Assembly: GCA_038317375.1 (NCBI GenBank)
Contig: JBBQBM010000001.1
Location: forward strand, 1,447 to 65,446
Length of the DNA stretch: 64,000 bases
Reading direction: 5' to 3'
From: Candidatus Saccharimonadales bacterium
GTDB taxonomy: Bacteria; Patescibacteriota; Saccharimonadia; Saccharimonadales; JAGQMS01
This document shows positions 1,450 through 60,827 of this stretch, one piece after another. The first letter of the stretch is position 1. Each line of letters begins with the position of its first letter. The translations under genes were made by a program, and so were the position numbers. Under the pieces are notes generated by a model. The model saw only the letters and a list, made by a program, of their open reading frames with translations. It searched no databases and was not told the origin of the DNA.

Positions 1450-1704
1450 ATGAACAAAAAAGTCTCTAGTGGGGTCGTGCACAAACTACCAACTGATTTG
1501 AAAGACGCCCTTGTATCTGAGCCAACGGCGCTGATGGCGTGGGAGGACATTAGTCCGCTAGCTAGAAACGAATGGATCTGCTGGGTAACATCGGCAAAAC
1601 AAGAAGCTACTCGGGAGCGTCGTGTTAAAGTTGGCATCGATAAGCTCTTGTCTGGCATGCGCAGGCCGTGTTGCTGGGCTGGCTGTACGCACCGAGTTAA
1701 ATAA
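1450..1704 (+). CDS. YdeI/OmpD-associated family protein
   Basis: NEWICWVTSAKQEATRERRVKVGIDKLLSGMRRPCCWAGC matches the C-terminal pattern of the bacteriocin-protection YdeI/OmdA domain. Confidence 0.7.
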   Translation: MNKKVSSGVVHKLPTDLKDALVSEPTALMAWEDISPLARNEWICWVTSAKQEATRERRVKVGIDKLLSGMRRPCCWAGCTHRVK

Positions 1705-2504: not shown

Positions 2505-2675
2505 ACATACCTGCTAAACTGTAGGTATTAACAATCTATGGTTGGAAGCAGGTGAGAATCCTGCACTGTGCCGCAACGGTGTGCTACTGAGTTAGTAGCG
2601 AGTCCGATACAACAGCAACTATTAACCCCGAGCAGGAGTACGTAGAAATCAATCGTCACCTCCCTGGTGATTTTT
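2505..2675 (+). promoter_or_regulatory. cobalamin (B12) riboswitch
   Basis: GGAAGCAGGTGAGAATCCTGCACTGTGCCGCAACGGT core plus B12-box-like GAGTCCGATACAACAGC. A weak terminator (GTCACC..GGTGAT TTTTT) lies just upstream of a DUF4430 gene. Confidence 0.75.
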
Positions 2676-2713
2676 TGTTTCTTACGCCTAGTTTCTTGGG
2701 AAGAAAGGGATCA

Positions 2714-3112
2714 ATGAAGAAGTACCTAAGTAGAATATTAACAGTAGTAGCAGCCGCAGCTTTGCTTGGTGGTGGTTTCATAGTATTAAGATCACGGGAC
2801 GCTACAGCTCCGGATAGTTCTCAGGCGGTAACAAAAAGCACCAAAGTAATCACATTCAGCACAGACAAAAAAACCGTTAGTTATGACGGCCAAGATGGGA
2901 AGACTGCGCTTGAGCTCCTTAAGGCTTTAGCAACTACCGAGACCGAATCTAGCGCCTATGGTGATTTCGTGACTTCAATTAATGGCTTAAAGGCCGAAAG
3001 TAACAAAGAATACTGGTCGTTTTACGTTAACGGAGCGTACGCCAGCGAAGGCGCGGGAACATATAAAACTAGTGATACGGAGAAAATACAATGGAAGCTC
3101 GAAAGTCTATAA
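2714..3112 (+). CDS. DUF4430 domain protein (transcobalamin-like B12-binding lipoprotein/secreted protein)
   Basis: Trimmed to MKKYLSRILTVVAAAALLGGG signal peptide. ELLKAL....YGDFVTSINGLKA...EYWSFYVNG matches DUF4430, and the gene is riboswitch-controlled. Confidence 0.75.
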   Translation: MKKYLSRILTVVAAAALLGGGFIVLRSRDATAPDSSQAVTKSTKVITFSTDKKTVSYDGQDGKTALELLKALATTETESSAYGDFVTSINGLKAESNKEYWSFYVNGAYASEGAGTYKTSDTEKIQWKLESL

Positions 3113-3114
3113 CT

Positions 3115-3651
3115 ATGAAAATAACTAACTCAAAAGACTGGACCGGTATAGCCATAGCAGTCGCACTAATTAGCTTCGCTGTAGTTAGCCGAGTTTTGCC
3201 ACACCCTGCAAACTTTGCGCCGATAGCTGCTGTAGCACTTTTTGGAGGTGCAATCCTACCGCGTAAGTGGGCGATTAGCTTGCCGTTAGTGGCGATGGTA
3301 ATAAGCGATCTATTTATTGGGCTACACCCGCTAGTTATTTTTACCTGGGGTAGTTTTGCGGCGATCGCACTAGTTAGTAGTTATCGTTTTGGGAAGCTAT
3401 CGGCCAGTAACGTTGTGTTTGGCAGTATTGGTGCTTCAATCTTGTTTTACGTTGTTTCTAATTTTGGCGTTTGGATCGAAGGACGTTTGTATGCTCGGAC
3501 GTTAGAAGGGCTAGCGCAGTGCTACGTCAACGCTCTACCTTTCTTTAGGAATACTCTTGCTGGCGATTTAGTTTATGCCGGGCTATTATTTGGCGCCTAC
3601 GCTCTAGCAACCCAGGCTATATATAAAACAAAAACTGCAAATAATACTTAA
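3115..3651 (+). CDS. membrane protein, putative B12-related transporter component (DUF6580/ECF-S-like)
   Basis: Starts 3 nt after the DUF4430 stop. Multi-TM protein with the PHPANFAPIAAVALFGGA motif; function inferred from riboswitch operon context. Confidence 0.6.
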   Translation: MKITNSKDWTGIAIAVALISFAVVSRVLPHPANFAPIAAVALFGGAILPRKWAISLPLVAMVISDLFIGLHPLVIFTWGSFAAIALVSSYRFGKLSASNVVFGSIGASILFYVVSNFGVWIEGRLYARTLEGLAQCYVNALPFFRNTLAGDLVYAGLLFGAYALATQAIYKTKTANNT

Positions 3652-3714: not shown

Positions 3715-4380
3715 ATGGGTAGTAAAATTCGAAAATCTATCAATGTGGGATATGCCTCGATTCCTAACAGGCGTCTACACCGACATATAAAACGGCAACT
3801 TCACCACATTCATATGCAGCAACTCGGCTGGCATCGCCAGTGGAAAAACTGGCGTTACAAGAACACCACATTATTACTTGTCAGCTTGTCGCTATTCTTC
3901 TTTTTATTATCAACTCGCTGGTTAGATGGCTCAATTAGCTCACTTGGTTCGAGCGGGTACGTTGGTGCGTTTATTGTCGGCATGTTATTTGTTTCTATAT
4001 TTACAGTTGCACCGGCCTCAGTTGTTTTATATCACCTAGCTGATTCGTTACATCCTCTAGAGATAGCAGTTATTGCCGGGGCAGGTGCGATGCTTAGTGA
4101 TTACCTAATCTTTAGGCAATTAAAAAACGGTTTGTTCGACGAGCTAACCCCGCTTTTTAACAAATTGACAACCCACAGAGTTACCAAACTATTTTACACA
4201 CCATATTTCTCGTGGCTGCTACCTTTTATCGGGGCGCTGATTATTGCATCGCCAGGACCTGACGAGATTGGTATAGGGTTAATGGGTGTATCAAAAATAA
4301 AACCTTGGCAATTTATGCTAATCACTTTTACCTTGAATTCTGTCGGGATATTTTTTGTAGTTTTGCTCGCTAGAACTTAA
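3715..4380 (+). CDS. hypothetical multi-pass membrane protein
   Basis: 221-aa ORF with a basic N-terminus and several TM helices; start uncertain. Confidence 0.6.
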   Translation: MGSKIRKSINVGYASIPNRRLHRHIKRQLHHIHMQQLGWHRQWKNWRYKNTTLLLVSLSLFFFLLSTRWLDGSISSLGSSGYVGAFIVGMLFVSIFTVAPASVVLYHLADSLHPLEIAVIAGAGAMLSDYLIFRQLKNGLFDELTPLFNKLTTHRVTKLFYTPYFSWLLPFIGALIIASPGPDEIGIGLMGVSKIKPWQFMLITFTLNSVGIFFVVLLART

Positions 4381-6083
4381 GATTCGGCGGAATCCTTCTC
4401 GTCTTCGTCAGACTTGGCTAAGAGCAAGTTCAAGTGTTTTTCGCGGTAGTTTTTGAACTCGGTTTTATTAAAACCATTGCGCTTTATGAAGGCGGTTATT
4501 TTTTCGGTGCCGATGTAGTGGGGCAAAATTACATACGAAGCTCCATCGCCGTAAAGATCAGCGGCTTGCTCGATACTATCAGCTGTGCAAATGAAGACAG
4601 CCTCGGGGTTATTAGTAGCCAGCCAGTGCCCTAAAAAGGTATTAGTTTTATTGTCGCTGATTGTTGATACTACCAATCTAACTTTGTCTAGATGCATCTC
4701 TTCAAGTAGCTCGGGATCGGTTGCGTCACCATACAAATAATGAATATGCTGCTTCTCAAGAATATCTATGATTTCGGGATCATAATCGACGACCACAAAA
4801 CGTTTTCCCATATCTTTAAAAGTCTTAATGAATTCAACCCCACCTTTTCGATAGCCAAATAGCGCAATAGAAAAATGATTAGCCATCTCTCGTTGTTCAA
4901 AGTTAGTGGTTTTACGTTCAAAAAATCGTAGTTGGCGCTCGAATTTAACATATAGCTCGTCGTCGTACTTCATAAAATATGTCGATACCGCAAAAGTTAT
5001 TAGTGCTACAAAAGTTAATGTGTCGGACGCTTTTTGGCTAACTAACCCGGCGCTAAGTGCGGCGAACATTAGAACCAAAGAAAATTCACTTATCTGGCTC
5101 ATCGAAATGGCAGATTTAAAACTTGCCCTTTTTGTGTAACCAATGATCCCCATGGTGATCATTACAACCAGAGGCTTTAAGAATAGCGCGACGGCGGCAA
5201 GAACTAGAGCCGTTGTGACTACGCCGGTTAATAGACTCGGCGTCATCGACTGGCCAAGTGCAATAAAGAAAATGACTATAAAGAAATCACGCAAAGGTTT
5301 TAATCTTGATGCCATCTCGCTACTGTAAGGCAGGCTAGCTAGGCTAACACCAGCAAATAGTGCACCGATCTCGATAGAGAATCCAACAGACTCAAATAGC
5401 GCTGCCAAACCAAGCCCCCAGCCAAGTCCAAAAAGGAGTAGCAACTCCTTAGAATTTTCTAGAGTACGAGTTAGCTTTGGTATTAGATAACGGCTCACAA
5501 AATAAACTACTCCTGTTAGGCTAATCCCTCGTAGTAGAAGTAGGATAATATTTAGGACGCTACCATCATTACCGCTACGAATAGCAATGATAATTTTAGC
5601 TGCTGTGGCGACAACGTCTTGAACTAGTAAAATACCGATTGTGATCTGAGCATAGAGTCGGGTTGTTTCTTTTTTGTCGTTCAGGAGTTTGACTATGATA
5701 ATAGTACTACTCATCGCAAGCGCTAGACCAATGATTCCAGACTCTAGCTTTCCGAAGCCAAGCAGACGGCTAATGAAGAAGCCGGTGATAGTCACCAGGC
5801 TAACTTGGACACTTGAGGTAATCAGAACGGTTTTACCAACCCGAGTGAAAATCTTGACACTAAGATCGAGGCCGATAATGAATAACAGAAGTGCGATGCC
5901 AATACTCGAGAAGACCTCAGTTGTTCCGGGTGTTTTTATAATGTTGAGAGCCGCTGGCCCGGCAATAATTCCGGTCAGGATATAACCGATTATTAACGGC
6001 TGGCGCAGGAGCTTCATAAGAAGTGCAACAATCGTGCCGATTCCAATGACTAATGCTAGTTCAGAGAAAATGTTCGTTTCCAT
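4377..6083 (-). CDS. monovalent cation:proton antiporter (CPA2/Kef-type) with C-terminal RCK/TrkA-N domain
   Basis: 568 aa. N-terminal Na+/H+ exchanger-like TM domain, then a FGYRKGG.. Rossmann-like RCK domain. Confidence 0.85.
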   Translation of the reverse strand: METNIFSELALVIGIGTIVALLMKLLRQPLIIGYILTGIIAGPAALNIIKTPGTTEVFSSIGIALLLFIIGLDLSVKIFTRVGKTVLITSSVQVSLVTITGFFISRLLGFGKLESGIIGLALAMSSTIIIVKLLNDKKETTRLYAQITIGILLVQDVVATAAKIIIAIRSGNDGSVLNIILLLLRGISLTGVVYFVSRYLIPKLTRTLENSKELLLLFGLGWGLGLAALFESVGFSIEIGALFAGVSLASLPYSSEMASRLKPLRDFFIVIFFIALGQSMTPSLLTGVVTTALVLAAVALFLKPLVVMITMGIIGYTKRASFKSAISMSQISEFSLVLMFAALSAGLVSQKASDTLTFVALITFAVSTYFMKYDDELYVKFERQLRFFERKTTNFEQREMANHFSIALFGYRKGGVEFIKTFKDMGKRFVVVDYDPEIIDILEKQHIHYLYGDATDPELLEEMHLDKVRLVVSTISDNKTNTFLGHWLATNNPEAVFICTADSIEQAADLYGDGASYVILPHYIGTEKITAFIKRNGFNKTEFKNYREKHLNLLLAKSDEDEKDSAES

Positions 6084-6125
6084 TTGTACCTAAGAAACAT
6101 TATACTGGTATAAGCTTAAACAATT

Positions 6126-6611
6126 ATGAAAACATTCTTTCATCGTATTTCTAGCAAGGTTTCGATGGCCATGGGATCGCCTTATTCGTTTATGCTCGCG
6201 GTCTTGGTGGTAATAATTTGGGCTGTGTCTGGACCTGTTTTCGCCTACTCTCAAACCTGGCAACTGGTTATTAACACTGGGACAACTATCGTTACGTTTT
6301 TGATGATCTTTTTAGTGCAGAACACTCAGAACCGTGACGGCAAGGCAGTACAACTAAAACTCGATGAGTTAATTCGTTCAACGACAGGAGCCAGAAATGA
6401 ATTTGTTACTTTGGGTCTTCTCAGCGATGAAGAATTAGAAGCTCTAGACAAAGACTTCCAATTAATCGGGGCGAAAAAGAATAGTCACCTACTTGCCGAC
6501 ATTCATGTTCATCTGGACGCCGAAAGGGCTCGCCGCCACAAATCGTTAGGCGATAGAATCAAAAACGTCGTTAATCATTCATCTATTCAGCAAGATCCTC
6601 CAGAAAATTGA
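6126..6611 (+). CDS. low-affinity iron permease family protein
   Basis: WQLVINTGTTIVTFLMIFLVQNTQNRDGKAVQLKLDELIR is the signature region of this family. Confidence 0.8.
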   Translation: MKTFFHRISSKVSMAMGSPYSFMLAVLVVIIWAVSGPVFAYSQTWQLVINTGTTIVTFLMIFLVQNTQNRDGKAVQLKLDELIRSTTGARNEFVTLGLLSDEELEALDKDFQLIGAKKNSHLLADIHVHLDAERARRHKSLGDRIKNVVNHSSIQQDPPEN

Positions 6612-7548: not shown

Positions 7549-8559
7549 ATGAGAATTGTATTACTTATAGGATTTTTTATTATTTCGTGCTTCAACATCT
7601 TACTAATTCGTAGCTTCGAATATATGAGCGTGCGCGAGCTCAAGCGCCAAGCCCGGAGTGGGAATATTAAAGCCGCCAGAGTTTATAAGGTTCGAGGTGT
7701 TTACGGTATTCAAGTCTGGATTTTATTATGGGGGGCAGTTGGTATAAGCACTTCAGCCGTGGTCTTGATTCTTAATAGTTCAGTAGCGACGTGGCTGGCA
7801 ATTGTTCTTAGCATTCCAATACTCGTTTTTTTGCACGCTGTATTGCCACGTATAAAGAGGCCCAAGCCAAGCATTAATCTTGCCTCGTCTATTAGCCCGC
7901 AGTTGGAAGCTGTTTTACGCCTATTTCGACCCTTACTTTTAGTCGTGACCCGACTTGTCGGACGCTGGATAAAAGACGAACCATTCACCCGCATACACAG
8001 CAAGGAAGAGCTTCTAGAAGTCTTAAACCATTCTGAAATGGCAACACGCGTCAGTAAAGACGAAGTTTTAATAGCGACTTCAGCGCTAACATTTGGAGAT
8101 GAGAATATAGGCAAATTTATGACGCCAATCGGTGTAGTTAAAACGGTTGCAGAAAAGGACGTACTAACTCCAGTTATGCTCGACGAACTTCATGACAGTG
8201 GTTTCTCGCGCTTTCCGGTTAAAGGCAGTGGCAATACCTACGTTGGTACTCTCTATTTCAAAGACGCTGTCAATATGGAGACTAGTCATGCCGTTAAGAA
8301 TATTATGCGAAAAAGTGTTTTTTACGTGAACGAATCGGCCCTACTAGATCAAGCTTTGAAGGCTTTCTTGAAGACCCAGCACCATTTGTTTATGGTGGTG
8401 AATGAATATGAAGACGTCGTTGGTGTTATTACAATTGAAGATATTTTAGAACGAATAATCGGCAAAAAAATTGTTGATGAATTTGACCAGTACGATGATC
8501 TTCGTGTGGTAGCAAAATCCCTCGCAGAAAAGCAGGTGAGCCAAGCAGACCATGTCTGA
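7549..8559 (+). CDS. CNNM/HlyC-CorC-type transporter (DUF21 TM domain plus CBS pair)
   Basis: N-terminal TM region followed by two CBS-like repeats (..VVGVITIEDILERIIG..). Confidence 0.75.
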   Translation: MRIVLLIGFFIISCFNILLIRSFEYMSVRELKRQARSGNIKAARVYKVRGVYGIQVWILLWGAVGISTSAVVLILNSSVATWLAIVLSIPILVFLHAVLPRIKRPKPSINLASSISPQLEAVLRLFRPLLLVVTRLVGRWIKDEPFTRIHSKEELLEVLNHSEMATRVSKDEVLIATSALTFGDENIGKFMTPIGVVKTVAEKDVLTPVMLDELHDSGFSRFPVKGSGNTYVGTLYFKDAVNMETSHAVKNIMRKSVFYVNESALLDQALKAFLKTQHHLFMVVNEYEDVVGVITIEDILERIIGKKIVDEFDQYDDLRVVAKSLAEKQVSQADHV

Positions 8560-18132: not shown

Positions 18133-18208
18133 TGGTGGGGGCGGTTGGATTTGAACCGACGGCCAAAGGATTATGAGTCCTCTGCTCTAACCACTGAGCT
18201 ACGCCCCC
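18133..18208 (-). tRNA. tRNA with CAU anticodon (elongator Met or Ile2-lysidine type)
   Basis: Reverse complement GGGGGCGTAGCTCAGTGGTTAGAGC..CTCATAA..GGTTCAAATCC..CGCCCCCACCA folds as a cloverleaf; CCA is encoded; C11-G24 elongator-type D stem. Confidence 0.9.
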
Positions 18209-18247
18209 GTAAAGAAAACCGATACTCGAACTTGTTCGAGTTGCTCT

Positions 18248-18338
18248 GGCAAGCTTCGCCTGCCCACAGAACTTTCATGTATGTAACAAGTTACATCCTG
18301 AAAGATTCTCTTGCGAACAGCCACGGGCTATTCTCACC
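18248..18338 (-). ncRNA. tRNA-linked multi-hairpin module, copy 3 (inverted orientation in this window)
   Basis: On the minus strand: GGTGAGAA, AGCC-CGT-GGCT, GAATCTTTC, ATGTAA-CTTG-TTACAT, GAAAGTTC, GGCAGG-CGAAG-CTTGCC. Collinear with the copies at 20111-20199 and 58675-58763. Confidence 0.45.
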
Positions 18339-18354
18339 ACTGAGCTATACCCCC
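18335..18354 (-). repeat. partial duplicate of the 5' end of tRNA 18133-18208
   Basis: Minus-strand GGGGGTATAGCTCAGTGGTG matches tRNA positions 1-20 (GGGGGCGTAGCTCAGTGGTT) at 17/20. Confidence 0.7.
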
Positions 18355-18529
18355 TCGTCGACGTGTGATGGTAAGATAACCAGTCTGCCGACAAAACAAG
18401 TTTGCTCGGACAGACTTAGTTATCTTACAAAGCCGTCTCCTCTCAAATTCGCCAATTCCCTCGCGAATTTGGTTGGGAAGTGCACGTAACAGATGAATTA
18501 TAACAGATGACGTATAATGAGATTAGGCT

Positions 18530-19882: not shown

Positions 19883-19911
19883 TTGACATTTATCTCTGTT
19901 AGAGCTATAAT
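19883..19911 (+). promoter_or_regulatory. sigma70-like promoter for the initiator tRNA
   Basis: TTGACA, 17-nt spacer, TATAAT; all read directly. Confidence 0.7.
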
Positions 19912-19953: not shown

Positions 19954-20028
19954 TGCGGGGTGGAGCAGTGGCAGCTCGCGTGGCTCATAACCACGAGGTC
20001 GCAGGTTCGAGTCCTGTCCCCGCAACCA
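19954..20028 (+). tRNA. tRNA-fMet (initiator-type, CAU)
   Basis: TGCGGGGTGGAGCAGTGGCAGCTCGCGTGGCTCATAACCACG..GGTTCGAGTCC..CCCCGCAACCA. A11-U24 in the D stem and a weak U1-A72 end pair are initiator features. Confidence 0.85.
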
Positions 20029-20037
20029 AAGAAAATC

Positions 20038-20066
20038 ACTCACCCCCGTGGTGGGTGTTTTTCTTT
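20038..20066 (+). terminator. intrinsic terminator after tRNA-fMet
   Basis: CACCCCCGTGGTGGGTG hairpin followed by TTTTTCTTT. Confidence 0.7.
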
Positions 20067-20199
20067 GGTACGGAACCAAGATTTGAAACTGCGACCGAGT
20101 AGAGGTCGTAGGTGAAAACTGCCTGCGGCAGTTTGTAAACGAATCTTCTCTTGCAAACTGGTTTGCAAAGATGAAGTTCGGGGGTCGCCGGAGGTGACC
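20067..20199 (+). ncRNA. tRNA-linked multi-hairpin module, copy 1
   Basis: GATTTGAA, CGACC-GAGTAGA-GGTCG, GGTGAAAA, CTGCC-TGC-GGCAG, AAACGAATCTTC, TTGCAAA-CTGG-TTTGCAA, GAAGTTCGGGGG, GGTCGC-CGGAG-GTGACC. Confidence 0.45.
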
Positions 20200-20209
20200 G
20201 AGTCCTGTC
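20199..20209 (+). repeat. 11-nt duplicate of the tRNA-fMet T-loop/T-stem segment
   Basis: CGAGTCCTGTC is identical to 20008-20018. Confidence 0.6.
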
Positions 20210-20302
20210 ACAGATATTTTACTGCGTAAAATTCCGCGACCCCGCCTCAACTCGGCGACATTCGTCATCCGGGCTTCCGGCCTTGCGAAAGTCCACAGGA
20301 CT

Positions 20303-20319
20303 TCCTCACCCCGCAACCA
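20303..20319 (+). repeat. 17-nt duplicate of the tRNA-fMet 3' end
   Basis: TCCTCACCCCGCAACCA versus tRNA 20012-20028 TCCTGTCCCCGCAACCA (15/17, the last 11 identical including CCA). Confidence 0.7.
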
Positions 20320-20327
20320 TGAAAAGT

Positions 20328-20354
20328 GCCCGTCCTCATGACGGGCTTTATCTT
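20328..20354 (+). terminator. intrinsic terminator
   Basis: GCCCGTC-CTCAT-GACGGGC followed by TTTATCTT. Confidence 0.7.
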
Positions 20355-39927: not shown

Positions 39928-40004
39928 GGCGGCGTAGCTCAGTTGGTTAGAGCGCAGGACTCATAAGCCTGAGGTCACAAGTTCAATTCTTGTCGCCGCT
40001 ACCA
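39928..40004 (+). tRNA. tRNA with CAU anticodon (candidate tRNA-Ile2, the TilS substrate, or elongator Met)
   Basis: GGCGGCGTAGCTCAGTTGGTTAGAGC..CTCATAA..AGTTCAATTCT..CGCCGCTACCA. Lies 8 nt upstream of tilS. Confidence 0.85.
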
Positions 40005-40012
40005 AGTTATCA

Positions 40013-40936
40013 ATGAATATTTCTCCGGGTAAATATATAGTGGCAGTTAGCGGTGGAGTTGATTCCGTCGTTCTTTTGGATATGCTCGTCGCTCAGAGTA
40101 AGGAAACAGTTTTGCCGAACCTTGAGCTGATCGTTGCCCACTTCGACCACGGCATGCGTGAAGATTCTTCGGACGACGCCAAGTTTGTTAGTGACATAGC
40201 CAAGAAATATGGGCTTCAATATGAAACTGAAAGAGTTGAGCTTGGTACGGACGCCAGCGAGGCCGATGCCAGAACAGCCAGATACGACTTCTTAAAACGT
40301 ACTCAACAAAAGCATAGTGCAACAGCAATTATTACGGCGCATCATGAGGACGATGTTCTGGAAACAGCAGTTATTAATATGCTCCGCGGTACTGGCCACC
40401 GTGGGTTACATTCACTCAAGAGTCGGTCGGATATCTCACGCCCACTACTGCATCTAAAAAAGACCGATATTCATACTTACGCCAAAGAACATGAGCTTAA
40501 ATGGCGCGAGGATGGCACCAACCAAGACACTAAATTCTTGCGTAACAAAATTCGGCTCGACGTTATCCCAAAAGGCGGAGCGGAGTGGCGAACAAAGATG
40601 CTTGAGCATATCGACAAAGCCGGCCAGCTCGGCGAAAAGCTAGACAGAGAGATCGACACACTTCTGGGCCAAGCCTTGCGTAGCGGCCAAGCCAGAATTT
40701 CGCGAAGTTGGTTTGTGAAGTTGCCGCACGATCTAGCCGGTGAGGTGATTGTAGCTTTACTTCGTCGGCTTAAAGTCGTCGATATTGATAAGCATTTGGT
40801 CGAACGGTTAACCTTGCAAATAAAAACCGCTAAGCCCGGCAAAAAGCTGGATATCGATAAAGACCATTACGTTTTAATGACCAAACGTTCTGCCAGAATA
40901 ACTAACCGAGCGACACATAAGACTGTCCGTGTATAA
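40013..40936 (+). CDS. tilS: tRNA(Ile)-lysidine synthetase
   Basis: PP-loop VAVSGGVDSVVLL and HFDHGMRE..; 307 aa. Confidence 0.85.
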   Translation: MNISPGKYIVAVSGGVDSVVLLDMLVAQSKETVLPNLELIVAHFDHGMREDSSDDAKFVSDIAKKYGLQYETERVELGTDASEADARTARYDFLKRTQQKHSATAIITAHHEDDVLETAVINMLRGTGHRGLHSLKSRSDISRPLLHLKKTDIHTYAKEHELKWREDGTNQDTKFLRNKIRLDVIPKGGAEWRTKMLEHIDKAGQLGEKLDREIDTLLGQALRSGQARISRSWFVKLPHDLAGEVIVALLRRLKVVDIDKHLVERLTLQIKTAKPGKKLDIDKDHYVLMTKRSARITNRATHKTVRV

Positions 40937-57943: not shown

Positions 57944-58453
57944 GTGTATCATAAGTTCATGAATGCTTACGTTTTAATTGCCATAATTGGTGGAGTGATT
58001 GGTATCTTGCCAATTGTTTGGCGCTCTAAAGGCACCTACGTCTTCCTGTTATTGTGTGCTGGAAGTTTGTTGAGTGCTTCGGTCAGTGGGTCGCTTGTCA
58101 GCGAGATACGTAGCGCTGCGTCAACCGAAAACATCCCTGTTCAAAACATCGTGCAAGGAGTTTTATTACTCCTGCCGGCGGTGCTGGCAATACTTATAAG
58201 CCGGGGCTCTGTTAAGAAAAAGAAGGCGCCCTTTCATCTACTGCCTTCGCTAGCGGCTGGAGTATTAGCCTATCTATGGTTTATTAGAGTTTTACCGTTC
58301 GATCAATTCTCGAGATTCGAAAACGCCGAGGTCACCCAACAACTTATGCGAATACGTGATACCGCCCTAGTGGCTGGGATTTTAAGTAGTATCGCGTTGG
58401 TATTTGTTGAGAAACCAAAACCCGACGAACTTGATTCAAAGAAAAAGAAATAG
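57944..58453 (+). CDS. hypothetical multi-pass membrane protein
   Basis: GTG start abutting the DUF192 stop (alternative ATG at 57959); four or five TM helices. Confidence 0.55.
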   Translation: MYHKFMNAYVLIAIIGGVIGILPIVWRSKGTYVFLLLCAGSLLSASVSGSLVSEIRSAASTENIPVQNIVQGVLLLLPAVLAILISRGSVKKKKAPFHLLPSLAAGVLAYLWFIRVLPFDQFSRFENAEVTQQLMRIRDTALVAGILSSIALVFVEKPKPDELDSKKKK

Positions 58454-58511
58454 CCCGAGACTAGTGTTGGTTGACTTTTGTTGTCAAAAATAAGATAATC
58501 ACCTCTGTTCC

Positions 58512-58588
58512 GGGTCCGTAGCTCAGCTGGTTAGAGCACCTGCCTTTTAAGCAGGGTGTCATGGGTTCAAGTCCCATCGGACCCTCCA
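58512..58588 (+). tRNA. tRNA-Lys (UUU)
   Basis: GGGTCCGTAGCTCAGCTGGTTAGAGC..CTTTTAA..GGTTCAAGTCCCAT CGGACCC T CCA. Confidence 0.92.
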
Positions 58589-58596
58589 AAACTAAC

Positions 58597-58625
58597 GCCC
58601 CACTCAAATGTGGGGCTTTTGTTTT
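58597..58625 (+). terminator. intrinsic terminator after tRNA-Lys
   Basis: GCCCCA-CTCAAATG-TGGGGC followed by TTTTGTTTT. Confidence 0.75.
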
Positions 58626-58626
58626 G

Positions 58627-58763
58627 GTCGTTCCAATGGATTTGAATTTATGACACGCCAGAAAGGGTGTCGTGGGTGAGAAATGCCTGTGGCATTTAGG
58701 AAACGAATCTTCCGATGCCAACTTGTTGGCAATCGAGAAGTTCGGGGGTCGCGGAACGTGACC
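58627..58763 (+). ncRNA. tRNA-linked multi-hairpin module, copy 2
   Basis: GATTTGAA, GACAC-GCCAGAAAGG-GTGTC, GGTGAGAA, ATGCC-TGT-GGCAT, AAACGAATCTTC, TGCCAA-CTTG-TTGGCA, GAAGTTCGGGGG, GGTCGC-GGAAC-GTGACC. Confidence 0.45.
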
Positions 58764-58783
58764 AAGTCCCATCGGACCCTCCA
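58763..58783 (+). repeat. exact 21-nt duplicate of the tRNA-Lys 3' end
   Basis: CAAGTCCCATCGGACCCTCCA is identical to 58568-58588. Confidence 0.9.
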
Positions 58784-58838
58784 CATTCCTATACGTTAGC
58801 CCTGAAGTCTATTTATTGGGCTATTGTATACTGCAATA

Positions 58839-59309
58839 ATGGATTCATCGCAAAAAGCTAAATACATTATCGAGAACACTGGCATTATGGTTATCGCAAC
58901 GGCCGACAGCACAGGAAAGCCGTGGATATCACCCGTAGGTTTTACGTACGACGATAATCACAATCTATATTGGGTATCGTATAAGAAAGCCCTACACTCC
59001 GAAAATATTGTCGGTAGACCAGAGGTTGCTATTACTATTTTTGGCAAGTTGCCTAGTGGCGATACAGATGGAGTTTATATAGACGCAACGGCTCATGAGT
59101 TAAGGAATGATCCTGAGATTCGACTGGCAATGTCTTTATTTGCCAAAAGACGCCCACAAATTTCTAAATTCACGGTGAATACGGTAAGAGACGTTACTTG
59201 CGATGCGGTATGGAGAATGTATAAAGCTGTCCCTGTGAGTATCTCAAAACGTGCAGACAAAGTAATCGACGGACAGTCGATTACTGTTCGCGAACCGGTG
59301 ACCCTATGA
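58839..59309 (+). CDS. pyridoxamine 5'-phosphate oxidase family (FMN-binding split barrel) protein
   Basis: Trimmed to MDSSQKAKY (TATACT 6 nt upstream). ..MVIATADSTGKPWISPVGF....LYWVS pattern. Confidence 0.7.
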   Translation: MDSSQKAKYIIENTGIMVIATADSTGKPWISPVGFTYDDNHNLYWVSYKKALHSENIVGRPEVAITIFGKLPSGDTDGVYIDATAHELRNDPEIRLAMSLFAKRRPQISKFTVNTVRDVTCDAVWRMYKAVPVSISKRADKVIDGQSITVREPVTL

Positions 59310-59384: not shown

Positions 59385-60827
59385 ATGCTATTTTCGAGGA
59401 TTATTACTATGATCTTCGATCATCGGTTTCGAAGAACAACCTTTCTAATATTCGGTAGCCTAGGCTTCTTGGGCGGATCGCTCTATGCGCTACAGGGTAG
59501 TGCTGGCTGGGCTTGGCTGATCCCAGCTTTCTTCTTTGCGCCGGCGCTAAAGGACCGTCGCTTTGTAGCGCTGGTAGTCGTTATGTATGGATGTTTCATC
59601 GGCGGAGTTATTAGAGGTAACCACGCGCTCGCAAAAGAGGACGTGCTACGCCAGTTCATGGGCCAGAAAGTGACGCTTGATGCTGTGATTACGGACGACG
59701 GCTATTATGACTACAAAAGGAGGGTGACCTTCACGGCCAACGTGTTTGAGATTTTGTCGCCAGAACGAGTCAAGGTTGACGTGCCGCTACGGATAAATAC
59801 CTTTGTACTATCATCTGCTACTCGCGGAGAAGTAGTGAGAGTAACAGGAAAGATTTTCCCTACGCTTGGTAATGTGGCTGGGTCGATTGGCTATGCTGAG
59901 GTCGAGACTTTAGGTACGACCGTAAATTTTTTGGACCTGGCGAGACAAAAGTTCACAGCTGGGCTACGAAACAGTTTGCCGGAACCAACGGCATCTTTTG
60001 CGGCCGGTATTTTAATTGGTCAAAGATCGTCATTGACTAGCAAGTGGCAAGATATTATTCGTGATGCCGGAATAACACATATTATCGCTGTGTCGGGCTA
60101 TAACCTGACCATCTTAGTAAGATTTACGCGAAGACTATTCAAGAGAAAGTCTCGCTATCAGGTATTAGTTAGTAGCGCACTGCTCGTTACTGCTTTCGTT
60201 ATGATTACTGGTCTTAGCCCTTCGATCTTACGGGCGATAATCGTGGTGATCCTATTACAGCTGAGCTGGTTCTATGGCCGGAAGATCCATCCGATTGTAC
60301 TACTCAGCTTATCGGCAGCGATCTCAGTACTTATTGACCCGTTCCAGCTTTGGAGAAGCGTTGGTTGGTATTTATCGTTCGCGGCTTTTTTTGGAGTAAT
60401 TGTTATGGCGCCGCTTCTTGTGTCTAAAAAACGCGAAAAATCTATCCTTGCCTTACTCATCACGGAGAGTTTATCTGCCGGTCTTATGACATTGCCGATC
60501 ATTGCTACGGTTTTTGGTAGAGTCTCAGTTGTTAGTATTTTTGCGAACTTGCTCGTGACCCCACTAGTTCCCCTGGCAATGTTGCTCAGTTTCATAGCCG
60601 GATTAGCTGGATGGATACTTCCGGCTATGTCTGGGTGGTTCGCGTTACCGGCACGGTTCTTATTAACCTATATGCTCGACATCGCCAATATCGTGTCGCG
60701 TTTGCCAGGCGCACGACTTGGCCTGAGTGTTAATGCATTAGTACTAGCAATATTTTATGCGTTACTCTGTGGTGGAATTTGGATTTTGCATCGACACAGA
60801 AAACCTAAACTATTAGTTCTAGACTGA
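59385..60827 (+). CDS. comEC: ComEC/Rec2 family competence channel protein (no metallo-beta-lactamase domain)
   Basis: ..GITHIIAVSGYNLTIL.. and the multi-TM competence domain; 480 aa. Confidence 0.8.
   Translation: MLFSRIITMIFDHRFRRTTFLIFGSLGFLGGSLYALQGSAGWAWLIPAFFFAPALKDRRFVALVVVMYGCFIGGVIRGNHALAKEDVLRQFMGQKVTLDAVITDDGYYDYKRRVTFTANVFEILSPERVKVDVPLRINTFVLSSATRGEVVRVTGKIFPTLGNVAGSIGYAEVETLGTTVNFLDLARQKFTAGLRNSLPEPTASFAAGILIGQRSSLTSKWQDIIRDAGITHIIAVSGYNLTILVRFTRRLFKRKSRYQVLVSSALLVTAFVMITGLSPSILRAIIVVILLQLSWFYGRKIHPIVLLSLSAAISVLIDPFQLWRSVGWYLSFAAFFGVIVMAPLLVSKKREKSILALLITESLSAGLMTLPIIATVFGRVSVVSIFANLLVTPLVPLAMLLSFIAGLAGWILPAMSGWFALPARFLLTYMLDIANIVSRLPGARLGLSVNALVLAIFYALLCGGIWILHRHRKPKLLVLD

Follow-up and report, generated by a model that had tools for sequence, protein, structure and literature searches.

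The 64,000-nucleotide (nt) stretch analyzed here, referred to as the window, comes from Candidatus Saccharimonadales bacterium (assembly GCA_038317375.1, contig JBBQBM010000001.1, positions 1,447 to 65,446), and the subject of this report is the block at window positions 58589-58783, which follows a transfer RNA (tRNA) gene and contains a folded element that we call M. The intact tRNA-Lys(UUU) gene (58512-58588, plus strand; ARAGORN; Rfam tRNA, 73.4 bits) has a sigma-70-like promoter upstream (58471-58499, plus strand) and is followed by a terminator-like hairpin (58597-58616, plus strand; terminator-like site and sequence reading) that forms an extended palindrome together with its A-rich and T-rich flanks and the CCA end of the tRNA. 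An earlier note on this DNA had described a tRNA-Lys gene with its own terminator, a multi-hairpin module and an exact 21-nt copy of the tRNA 3′ end, and all of these were recovered with ARAGORN, Rfam, a terminator scan and a repeat search.

The repeat search and alignments to the tRNA gave the order of the parts within the block. The 21-nt direct repeat CAAGTCCCATCGGACCCTCCA is 100% identical at 58568-58588 and 58763-58783. Its left copy is the last 21 nt of the intact tRNA-Lys, on the side that resembles the left attachment site (attL) of an integrated element; its right copy, the attR-like core, is designated arm B (plus strand) and is an exact copy of tRNA-Lys positions 56-76, that is, the rest of the T-loop, the T-stem 3′ strand, the acceptor 3′ strand and CCA. 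A second repeat, absent from the earlier note, joins 58553-66 and 58664-77 (14 nt at 93%). Arm A* (GGGTGTCGTGGGT; 58665-58677, plus strand) repeats tRNA-Lys 42-54 in the sense direction, covering the variable loop, T54 and the 5′ strand of the T-stem; it matches the gene at 12 of 13 nt, has GGT as its 3′ end and lies directly 5′ of M (GAGAA...GUGAC; 58678-58762, plus strand; covariance model score 101.7 bits, with covariation in alignments). Because the copy of positions 42-54 is directly 5′ of M and the exact copy of 56-76 directly 3′ of it, M interrupts a second, truncated tRNA-Lys copy within its T-loop, after G52 G53 T54 and before C56; this copy is without positions 1-41. Arm X (58625-58656, plus strand), found by alignment to the tRNA reverse complement, is a degenerate antisense copy of tRNA-Lys positions ~42-77; it starts at its 5′ end with TGG, the reverse complement of CCA, and pairs with A* and B in the minimum-free-energy fold. 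The 195-nt block, unit 1, is predicted to form one long interrupted hairpin from which M branches out (-78.8 kcal/mol, z = -4.75), and the fold of the opposite strand is nearly as stable.

The module had previously been taken for a tail on the tRNA. It is instead an insertion inside a truncated tRNA copy, and half of the sequence assigned to the module is tRNA-derived. The core hairpins are conserved as proposed, but GATTTGAA and the GACAC/GTGTC hairpin lie outside the core and represent antisense and sense copies of tRNA-Lys ~42-77: GATTTGAA and the 5′ strand of that hairpin belong to the antisense copy at 58625-58656, and the sense copy is at 58665-58677. The tRNA-end direct repeat flanks a 174-nt insert and the intact tRNA-Lys gene is regenerated, as in islands that integrate into tRNA genes. 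The insert is too small for an enzyme gene and holds no integrase, as had been noted before. Pfam screening of 40 of the 46 window open reading frames (ORFs) of at least 185 amino acids (aa) likewise yielded no integrase, transposase, recombinase or reverse transcriptase. Three window proteins, looked up as exact sequences, gave no match.

M is an ~86-90-nt core with three helices. P2 (8 base pairs, bp) is joined through G-N-A-A-R to the long P3, in which one U is bulged, and GGG joins P3 to P4 (6 bp), where a G.U pair is conserved. Analysis of 82 aligned copies with RNAalifold gave compensatory changes in 21 of 33 pairs. When 77 distinct core sequences were scored on a hand-set structure (P2, P3 and P4; 31 pairs), 95.7% of the cells were paired, compared with 25-44% when the partners were slid by 1-3 columns. 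Changes on both sides occurred in 20 pairs (399 cells), and the observed values were reached by none of 500 shuffles; columns fixed by the search pattern are invariant by construction. Position 6:26, for example, is G:C or A:U, the closing pair of P3 is C:G, G:C, A:U or U:A, and the P3 stems fall into four families. The junction bases GGUGARAA, G-N-A-A-R and GGG are conserved across family-level divergence. The G.U pair of P4 was kept in 69 of the 77 copies, a sign of the tRNA-sense strand; outside P4, G.U and A.C were equally frequent. M is a fold under selection, and the compensatory stem changes first seen in the window hold on the 77 distinct copies from other genomes. The two ends of M (GAGAA... 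and ...GUGAC) are not inverted repeats, and P2 and P4 are unrelated to each other.

No known RNA family could be assigned to the core, in agreement with the earlier observation. At gathering thresholds, Rfam 15 found only the four tRNAs in the window, and a search of 58400-58900 at E values up to 10 gave no match spanning the M core. ARAGORN likewise reported only four intact tRNAs in the window and no transfer-messenger RNA (tmRNA). A reading of the block as a tRNA-like or tmRNA-like RNA with GGTGAGAA as its D-loop was rejected, as there is no acceptor 5′ strand and both programs were negative. A hammerhead-like CUGAUGA in P3 was also set aside, being present in few variants only.

To locate other copies in the window, the conserved pattern GGTGARAA..GCC.G.GGC..TT.G.AA..GAATCTT was scanned with up to 3 mismatches and compared with 100 shuffles. 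There were exactly 3 matches (58675, 20111, and 18338 on the minus strand) and none in the shuffles. The covariance model scores of the three copies were 101.7, 101.4 and 75.4 bits, and the copies are ~65-80% alike. The module recurs at 20111-20200 (plus strand) and 18247-18338 (minus strand), two copies that had been noticed before; that count was incomplete, as a fourth, inverted copy lies at ~20210-20308.

Unit 2 lies behind an intact initiator-type tRNA-Met(CAU) (19954-20028, plus strand; ARAGORN) and has the same order as unit 1. The tRNA has a 12/12 sigma-70-like promoter (19883-19911, plus strand; promoter scan) and a terminator (20037-20057, plus strand; terminator scan), followed on the plus strand by the unit 2 arms (20066-20113; X 20066-20096, loop 20097-20103, A* 20104-20113), core M copy 2 (20114-20198; 101.4 bits over 20111-20200) and the first part of arm B, CGAGTCCTGTC, which is a 100% repeat of the tRNA-fMet T-loop and T-stem 3′ strand (20199-20209). 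The fourth copy, designated M′, is a divergent and expanded M nested in arm B in inverse orientation (20210-20308, minus strand; full-length covariance model match over 20215-20310, 25.6 bits, E ~6e-4). On the minus strand it is preceded by GCGGGG, and its ~100 nt split the tRNA-fMet 3′ end of unit 2, the second part of which, CCCCGCAACCA, follows at 20309-20319 (plus strand; 100% repeat search and sequence reading). A second terminator is located after it at 20328-20346. Copy 2 is collinear with unit 1 as claimed and ends in a tRNA 3′ end, albeit one split by M′. The tRNA terminators at 20025-20069 and 58585-58627 are both extended palindromes that include the tRNA's own CCA (ACCAAAGAAAA-hairpin-TTTTCTTTGGT), and such terminators could be active in both directions.

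Copy 3 does not share this order and is instead a mirror arrangement located upstream of its tRNA. On the minus strand, a pseudo-5′ tRNA-Met fragment with positions 1-19, GGGGGTATAGCTCAGTGGT (18336-18354; repeat search, 23 nt at 87%), runs into core M copy 3 (18247-18335; 75.4 bits over 18247-18338), followed by AGAGCA (D-stem 3′ strand), a hairpin at 18224-18241 and the intact tRNA-Met(CAU) (18133-18208; ARAGORN and Rfam). M is inserted here in the D-loop of the fragment, after GG. Just upstream of the fragment on the minus strand is a long near-perfect hairpin at 18372-18430 (GTAAGATAAC...GCAAACTTGTTTTGTC...GTTATCTTAC). Its tip, AAACTTGTTT, is also the tip of many P3 helices, and similar tips occur upstream of units in loci L072 and L024.

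The family is not confined to this genome. When one genome per species was scanned with a degenerate pattern, 112 stretches with 118 matches were obtained; the 89 matches with a paired P2 are true modules. By record title, the matched stretches are from Saccharibacteria/Saccharimonadales, Patescibacteria or unclassified "bacterium" metagenome-assembled genomes (MAGs), with the single exception of a 1.6-kilobase (kb) contig binned as Gemmatimonadaceae. A covariance model, as had been suggested, gave 126 matches across 96 loci; in all, M is present at ~90 loci of Saccharibacteria/Patescibacteria. Among the 98 matches with a tRNA in the locus, 96 have the same orientation as the nearest tRNA and 90 lie no more than 300 nt from it. 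At least 16 tRNA species serve as hosts of M, and one MAG has four near-identical copies at different tRNAs. The module pattern had no match in the 2.9 million viral contigs of IMG/VR, blastn of the unit against plasmids (PLSDB) and phages (INPHARED) gave none, and literature searches found no prior description of the M family. The family is widespread, unannotated and structured, and has an unusual relation to tRNA genes, and the finding is larger than the earlier note suggested.

Two arrangements recur. In the 3′-type (43 loci examined), the intact tRNA and its terminator come first, and the antisense arm X, a loop, A* (~42-54), M and B (55/56-76) follow in that order. In the 5′-type, tRNA sequence from +1 to the junction is followed by M and ~10 nt more of the tRNA; a short, inverted piece of the T-loop and then a spacer rich in A and T lead on to the intact tRNA. 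Most loci have the junction at position ~54, and the others have it in the variable region, the D-loop or the anticodon loop. Both arrangements show the topology of a Campbell-type (single-crossover) insertion with the target gene regenerated. M is always preceded by a GG run, and 1-2 target nt are missing at the junction with none duplicated, as in the native sequences TTAGG|AG|CATATG, GAAGG|CG|CACGAC and AGAGG|GT|CGTCGG, in which the replaced bases stand between bars. Insertion 3′ of a short fixed motif (GG) without duplication is also the behavior of the palindrome-associated transposable elements (PATEs) of the IS200/IS605 type. M lacks the terminal inverted repeats and the target-site duplication of miniature inverted-repeat transposable elements (MITEs).

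The units also accumulate. Some loci have units on both sides of one tRNA, and stacks are up to four deep (L030). At five loci, a divergent module was found inside P4 of another module. Three fMet loci, those of the window, L009 (~110-199, 85 bits) and L041 (~2227-2316), have an inverse module within arm B, preceded on the minus strand by GCGGG(G). In L100 (~2840-3400, minus strand), one pseudo-tRNA-Trp carries two M-family inserts, in the D-loop and the T-loop, and the intact tRNA-Trp carries a 3′-type unit as well. A conserved hairpin that is not part of a tRNA, AAGAGCCTnnAGAGGGGGTGGGCACCGCnnnAGGCTCTT, is a further target of M: in its loop M follows GAGG, and 1-3 stacked partial copies precede the intact hairpin (L028 ~440-900; L076 ~5950-6400; L083; L092 ~4660-5000; L111 ~5960-6250). 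The ~200 nt after this hairpin (ACACCCTTCAACCCACCTTGAAGGCC...GGCCCAC...AAATAAAACGAGGGAGG) are conserved across genomes, and Rfam gave no family match for the hairpin or for these ~200 nt. Further partial tRNA copies have other inserts where M would be (L088 ~4850-5020, minus strand; L103 4333-4500; L075 ~3060-3160, minus strand; L053 ~1540-1700, minus strand; and, upstream of their tRNAs, L070, L029, L051 and L067). Some of these inserts are akin to M and share only its first hairpin (TGAAAAyTGCC...GAGTTTTCyTTGCTTG...), and the unrelated ones are hairpins of 45-60 nt.

The three tRNA-derived arms differ markedly in how closely they match the resident tRNA. Across the 43 3′-type loci, B was identical to it in 26, A* in 1 and X in none, with mean divergences of 11%, 26% and 40%, respectively. 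An exact core with non-identical arms is what characterizes recombination sites (att). Local duplication of the arms followed by neutral decay was ruled out by the asymmetry between B and A*, because arms created together would not differ so. The repeat stops at tRNA +1 in 5 of 7 5′-type loci and at CCA in 25 of 33 3′-type loci, the terminator being duplicated too in the other 8; because of these end points, a tandem duplication that selection had rescued was rejected as well. A diversity-generating retroelement, which would mutate adenines, was rejected as the source of the arm divergence, since C-to-T transitions are what the arms show. The outermost B in L075 is from another tRNA-Lys allele than that of the resident gene.

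Comparison of related genomes indicates turnover at the tRNA-Lys site. The window, L012, L038, L062, L064, L066 and L091 share a syntenic tRNA-Lys(UUU) locus (flank-protein identity 62-74%), and a unit is present in all seven with a varying P3 subtype. In L113, with 90% flank-protein identity, the unit is present and its M belongs to a different subtype, unlike the window copy in every helix; with L113 included, the syntenic site is occupied in 8 genomes. The search for empty sites that had been proposed succeeded in part: M is missing beside tRNA-Lys in two related lineages (84% and 81% identity), but no polymorphism between near-identical strains was found. The shared site, the differing subtypes and the empty lineages together mean that occupancy is patchy and the core exchangeable, which speaks for turnover and not for an essential RNA gene fixed by vertical descent. 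Single-gene cassettes were found between tRNA-Lys and a 7-10-nt tRNA 3′-end repeat in L066 (7020-7700), L075 (~2560-3000, minus strand) and L124/L126 (4700-5470); their products are a glycosyltransferase-like ORF (putative, from the translation), a small membrane protein and a methyltransferase. The M units mark the tRNA flanks as hot spots of cassette acquisition in these genomes. A 1-nt indel at the 3′ end of the methyltransferase ORF distinguishes L124 from L126; in L124, gene callers nevertheless break this ORF up, giving one of 65 aa.

On balance, it is probable that the block at 58589-58783 is one unit of a new, Saccharibacteria-wide family of non-autonomous, protein-less, tRNA-restoring insertion cassettes built on M. 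M would be the cis-acting core of the element, acting as a folded single strand (RNA or single-stranded DNA, ssDNA) in the tRNA sense and moved in trans by an enzyme encoded elsewhere. Through the homology of the tRNA-derived arms, or through their folding into a mimic of the target, the struck tRNA would be restored. Three readings had been offered before: a miniature tRNA-targeting mobile element, a small RNA co-transcribed with the tRNA, and a scaffold followed by a target-matching segment. The first fits best because of the number of host tRNA species, the stacking and nesting, the patchy tRNA-Lys occupancy, and the exact core repeat with diverged arms. In units 1 and 2 there is no promoter-like site between the tRNA terminator and M, and any transcription of M would therefore be read-through. 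A TTGAAC in the spacer was considered as a -35 box and rejected because the spacing is inconsistent and TTGAAC is the reverse complement of the T-loop.

How such a cassette might move can be described by a model of exchange with a small ssDNA or RNA circle, which we consider tentative when taken alone. A small single-stranded circle would fold so that X, or the short inverted piece in the 5′-type, pairs with A* and B. The folded circle would then mimic the T-arm of the duplex tRNA gene, with M branching at the point of exchange. Exchange at the 3′ border of M would result in tRNA-terminator-X-A*-M-B, and exchange at its 5′ border in A-M-B*-X′-spacer-tRNA. One circle model yields both arrangements, including the otherwise odd position of the antisense arm. 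The attP(+) site of the CTX phage and the attC sites of integrons offer a comparison, being imperfect hairpins in which structure is conserved over sequence; the CTX phage uses the recombinase XerCD in trans. By analogy with CTX, an inverted arm beside a hybrid site after integration would give the order X-loop-A*-M-B. In contrast to attP(+) and attC, the units have a three-helix, 88-nt branch at the exchange point that is without counterpart there, their hairpin is without strand bias, and no recombinase has been identified.

Several observations weigh against the mobile-cassette interpretation. No excised form, no empty/filled polymorphism between near-identical strains, no transposase and no recombinase was found, and as a result mobility is inferred from the anatomy only. 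The long interrupted hairpin of the whole unit is predicted in most of 30 loci as two inverted arms with imperfect pairing, but the X:A*B pairing has no strand bias (the plus strand is the more stable in 12 of 28 loci). For the same reason, selection of this hairpin at the RNA level, suggested by the G.U-rich pairing of the window copy, was rejected as not general. The hairpin is also often decayed and is perhaps a by-product rather than a working part. The circle model is weak in this lack of strand bias and in that no recombinase is known for it. The interpretation does not explain how M reaches new tRNA species, and because unrelated inserts share the niche, the partial tRNA copies might arise independently of M. 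Lastly, copies within a genome are not always alike and the covariation is deep, which fits an old, selected RNA gene equally well.

That alternative, in which M is a host family of non-coding RNA genes, is in our judgment unlikely. M would be co-transcribed with the tRNAs by terminator read-through or from the upstream tRNA promoter, the tRNA-like arms would serve stability or processing, and the family, for example a tRNA-linked decoy or regulator, would have spread slowly by duplication and gene conversion. The deep covariation and the conserved single-stranded junction bases across family-level divergence are what such a gene would have, as are the strict co-orientation with tRNAs, the strand-specific G.U pair in P4, the identity of arm B to the tRNA, and the retention of M in very small genomes, including the syntenic tRNA-Lys site in 8 of them. 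Against it are the missing promoter-like site in units 1 and 2, the empty site in two related lineages, and the swapped M subtype in the relative with 90% identity. Nesting, stacking, inverse copies and GG-linked junctions resemble insertion events, and the same niche is taken by unrelated inserts. ROOL and GOLLD are conserved multi-helix RNA folds that often lie beside tRNA genes, but these are 500-800 nt long and present in Rfam; they are not embedded in tRNA fragments, unlike M, for which Rfam has no match.

A more radical form of the mobile-cassette interpretation, to which we assign a low probability, places M at the core of elements of a new class that lack proteins, are driven by structure and have a categorically new mechanism. 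The unit-length form would be a rod-like circle of ~200 nt, either RNA cut at the two CCA ends by tRNA-processing enzymes or ssDNA. It would carry its own folded mimic of a tRNA gene, and M would recruit a host enzyme or itself catalyze strand exchange after GG. Such an element could home into any tRNA T-loop with the tRNA rebuilt, as a viroid-like or CTX-like tRNA-homing element of the ultra-small genomes of the candidate phyla radiation (CPR).

The units could also be scars, that is, attR-side arms left by deleted integrase-bearing islands or prophages that once occupied tRNA 3′ ends. An exact repeat of the tRNA end whose arms are not identical is the classic mark of att sites, and true gene cassettes with short tRNA-end repeats are present at the same sites. 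In another streamlined genome, serial insertion of tRNA-targeting elements is documented to push older ones outward (bioRxiv 10.1101/2020.12.28.424599). Islands, prophages and tycheposons resemble the units in inserting into a tRNA gene and regenerating it, in the tRNA-end direct repeat that is exact in the core and diverged beyond it, and in stacking outward on successive insertion. In contrast to these integrative elements, the units are ~175-200 nt with no integrase or other gene, their structured core lies inside the T-loop of a displaced tRNA fragment, mirror 5′ units carry the tRNA 5′ part, and one family serves at least 16 tRNA species. Scars are quite improbable. Random deletion would not yield ~90 units of the same small size and order at that many tRNA species; M is located between the T-arm halves, not beside an intact core; and 5′ mirror units exist. 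Structural covariation speaks against decay, and M is absent from 2.9 million viral contigs and from plasmids and phages. There is also no recurrent integrase in the 8-kb flanks. All-against-all clustering of 1216 ORFs from 85 loci showed no family that recurs across different tRNA contexts and no recurrent integrase or reverse transcriptase; the top multi-context clusters consisted of ordinary genes (response regulator, ABC ATPase, histidine kinase, FolD and MurB).

We give little credence to the possibility that M is an intron-like or ribozyme-like RNA that enters the loops of mature tRNAs after GG, by reverse splicing or by cleavage and ligation, and is then fixed in DNA through reverse transcription and recombination. 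Its insertion sites are mostly tRNA loops (T, D and anticodon), its nesting is twintron-like, its repeats end at the mature tRNA termini (+1 and CCA), and M with its closing stem forms a compact multi-helix junction. With ~88 nt, however, M is far below the size of group I or II introns and without a catalytic core, and no Rfam intron or ribozyme matched at E values up to 10. The M-bearing tRNA copies are truncated and hence are not spliceable genes. The inverse copies on the non-transcribed strand, and one site in a helix strand (P4), indicate insertion at the DNA level; no reverse transcriptase was found among the screened window ORFs or the recurrent neighbors, which also disposes of a retron; and the repeat ends at +1 and CCA are equally expected for tRNA parts borne by the element. 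We know of no bulge-helix-bulge splicing in bacteria. The interrupted and split tRNAs of archaea are similar in their non-canonical interruptions and in the fragments near intact genes, and unlike the present case, in which the M-bearing copies are truncated. Integration of mobile elements has been proposed as the cause of the archaeal interruptions and of the fragments beside intact genes; the inserted element there is 1.8 kb with a recombinase, and the interrupted tRNAs are functional and spliced (Sugahara et al. 2012, PMC3293823).

The least probable alternative, to which we give very little weight, is that M is a non-autonomous element of the IS200/IS605 type (PATE) or a scaffold, akin to omega RNA, for an RNA-guided nuclease or recombinase whose guide would be arm B: insertion 3′ of GG without target duplication, the hairpin at each end of M, and a structured ~90-nt scaffold followed by ~21 nt that exactly match a tRNA gene are as expected, but no TnpA, TnpB, IscB or IS110-type gene is present among the 40 screened window ORFs or in the six largest multi-tRNA neighbor clusters (8-kb flanks), the two end hairpins are unrelated, a guide against the adjacent intact essential tRNA would target its own genome, and 5′-type units keep only ~10 nt after M. 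The units are like MITEs, cis-mobilizable elements (CIMEs) and PATEs in being small, multi-copy, protein-less and presumably mobilized in trans. Unlike MITEs, M has no terminal inverted repeats and 1-2 nt are missing in place of a target-site duplication; it also has deep structural covariation, not recent near-identical copies, and is strictly tied to partial tRNA copies. The M family is nearest to tRNA-restoring integrative elements and to miniature non-autonomous elements, yet it is without an integrase, terminal inverted repeats and target duplication.

Although the genomes of Saccharibacteria rank among the smallest of any bacteria, 1-4 of these ~200-nt units are present at many of their tRNA genes. 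If mobile, the units would be the smallest tRNA-restoring insertion cassettes described, and would imply a trans-acting enzyme or a catalytic nucleic acid that recognizes tRNA loops and might be developed into a programmable insertion tool. The units provide a parallel in bacteria to the way in which split and interrupted tRNA genes arose in archaea. As an unannotated ~88-nt family with strong covariation, M deserves an entry in RNA-family libraries. Island finders and tRNA annotation can be misled by the partial tRNA copies.

Some smaller features were noted at these loci. Palindromic insertions of 16-28 nt are present at the border of the T-stem and acceptor stem in displaced tRNA 3′ copies (L067 ~4010-4030; L045 ~6080-6110; L066 ~7895-7925; L049). 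Downstream of unit 1, the gene at window positions 59385-60827 is a competence candidate, likely of the ComEC type by its position relative to the syntenic L113 gene that matches Pfam PF03772; if so, natural transformation would be available as a route of cassette exchange. A third tRNA with a CAU anticodon (39928-40004) has no M unit and is located directly upstream of a PP-loop (ATP_bind_3) gene (40013-40936). This gene resembles tilS, which encodes the tRNA-Ile lysidine synthetase, and the tRNA may be tRNA-Ile2.

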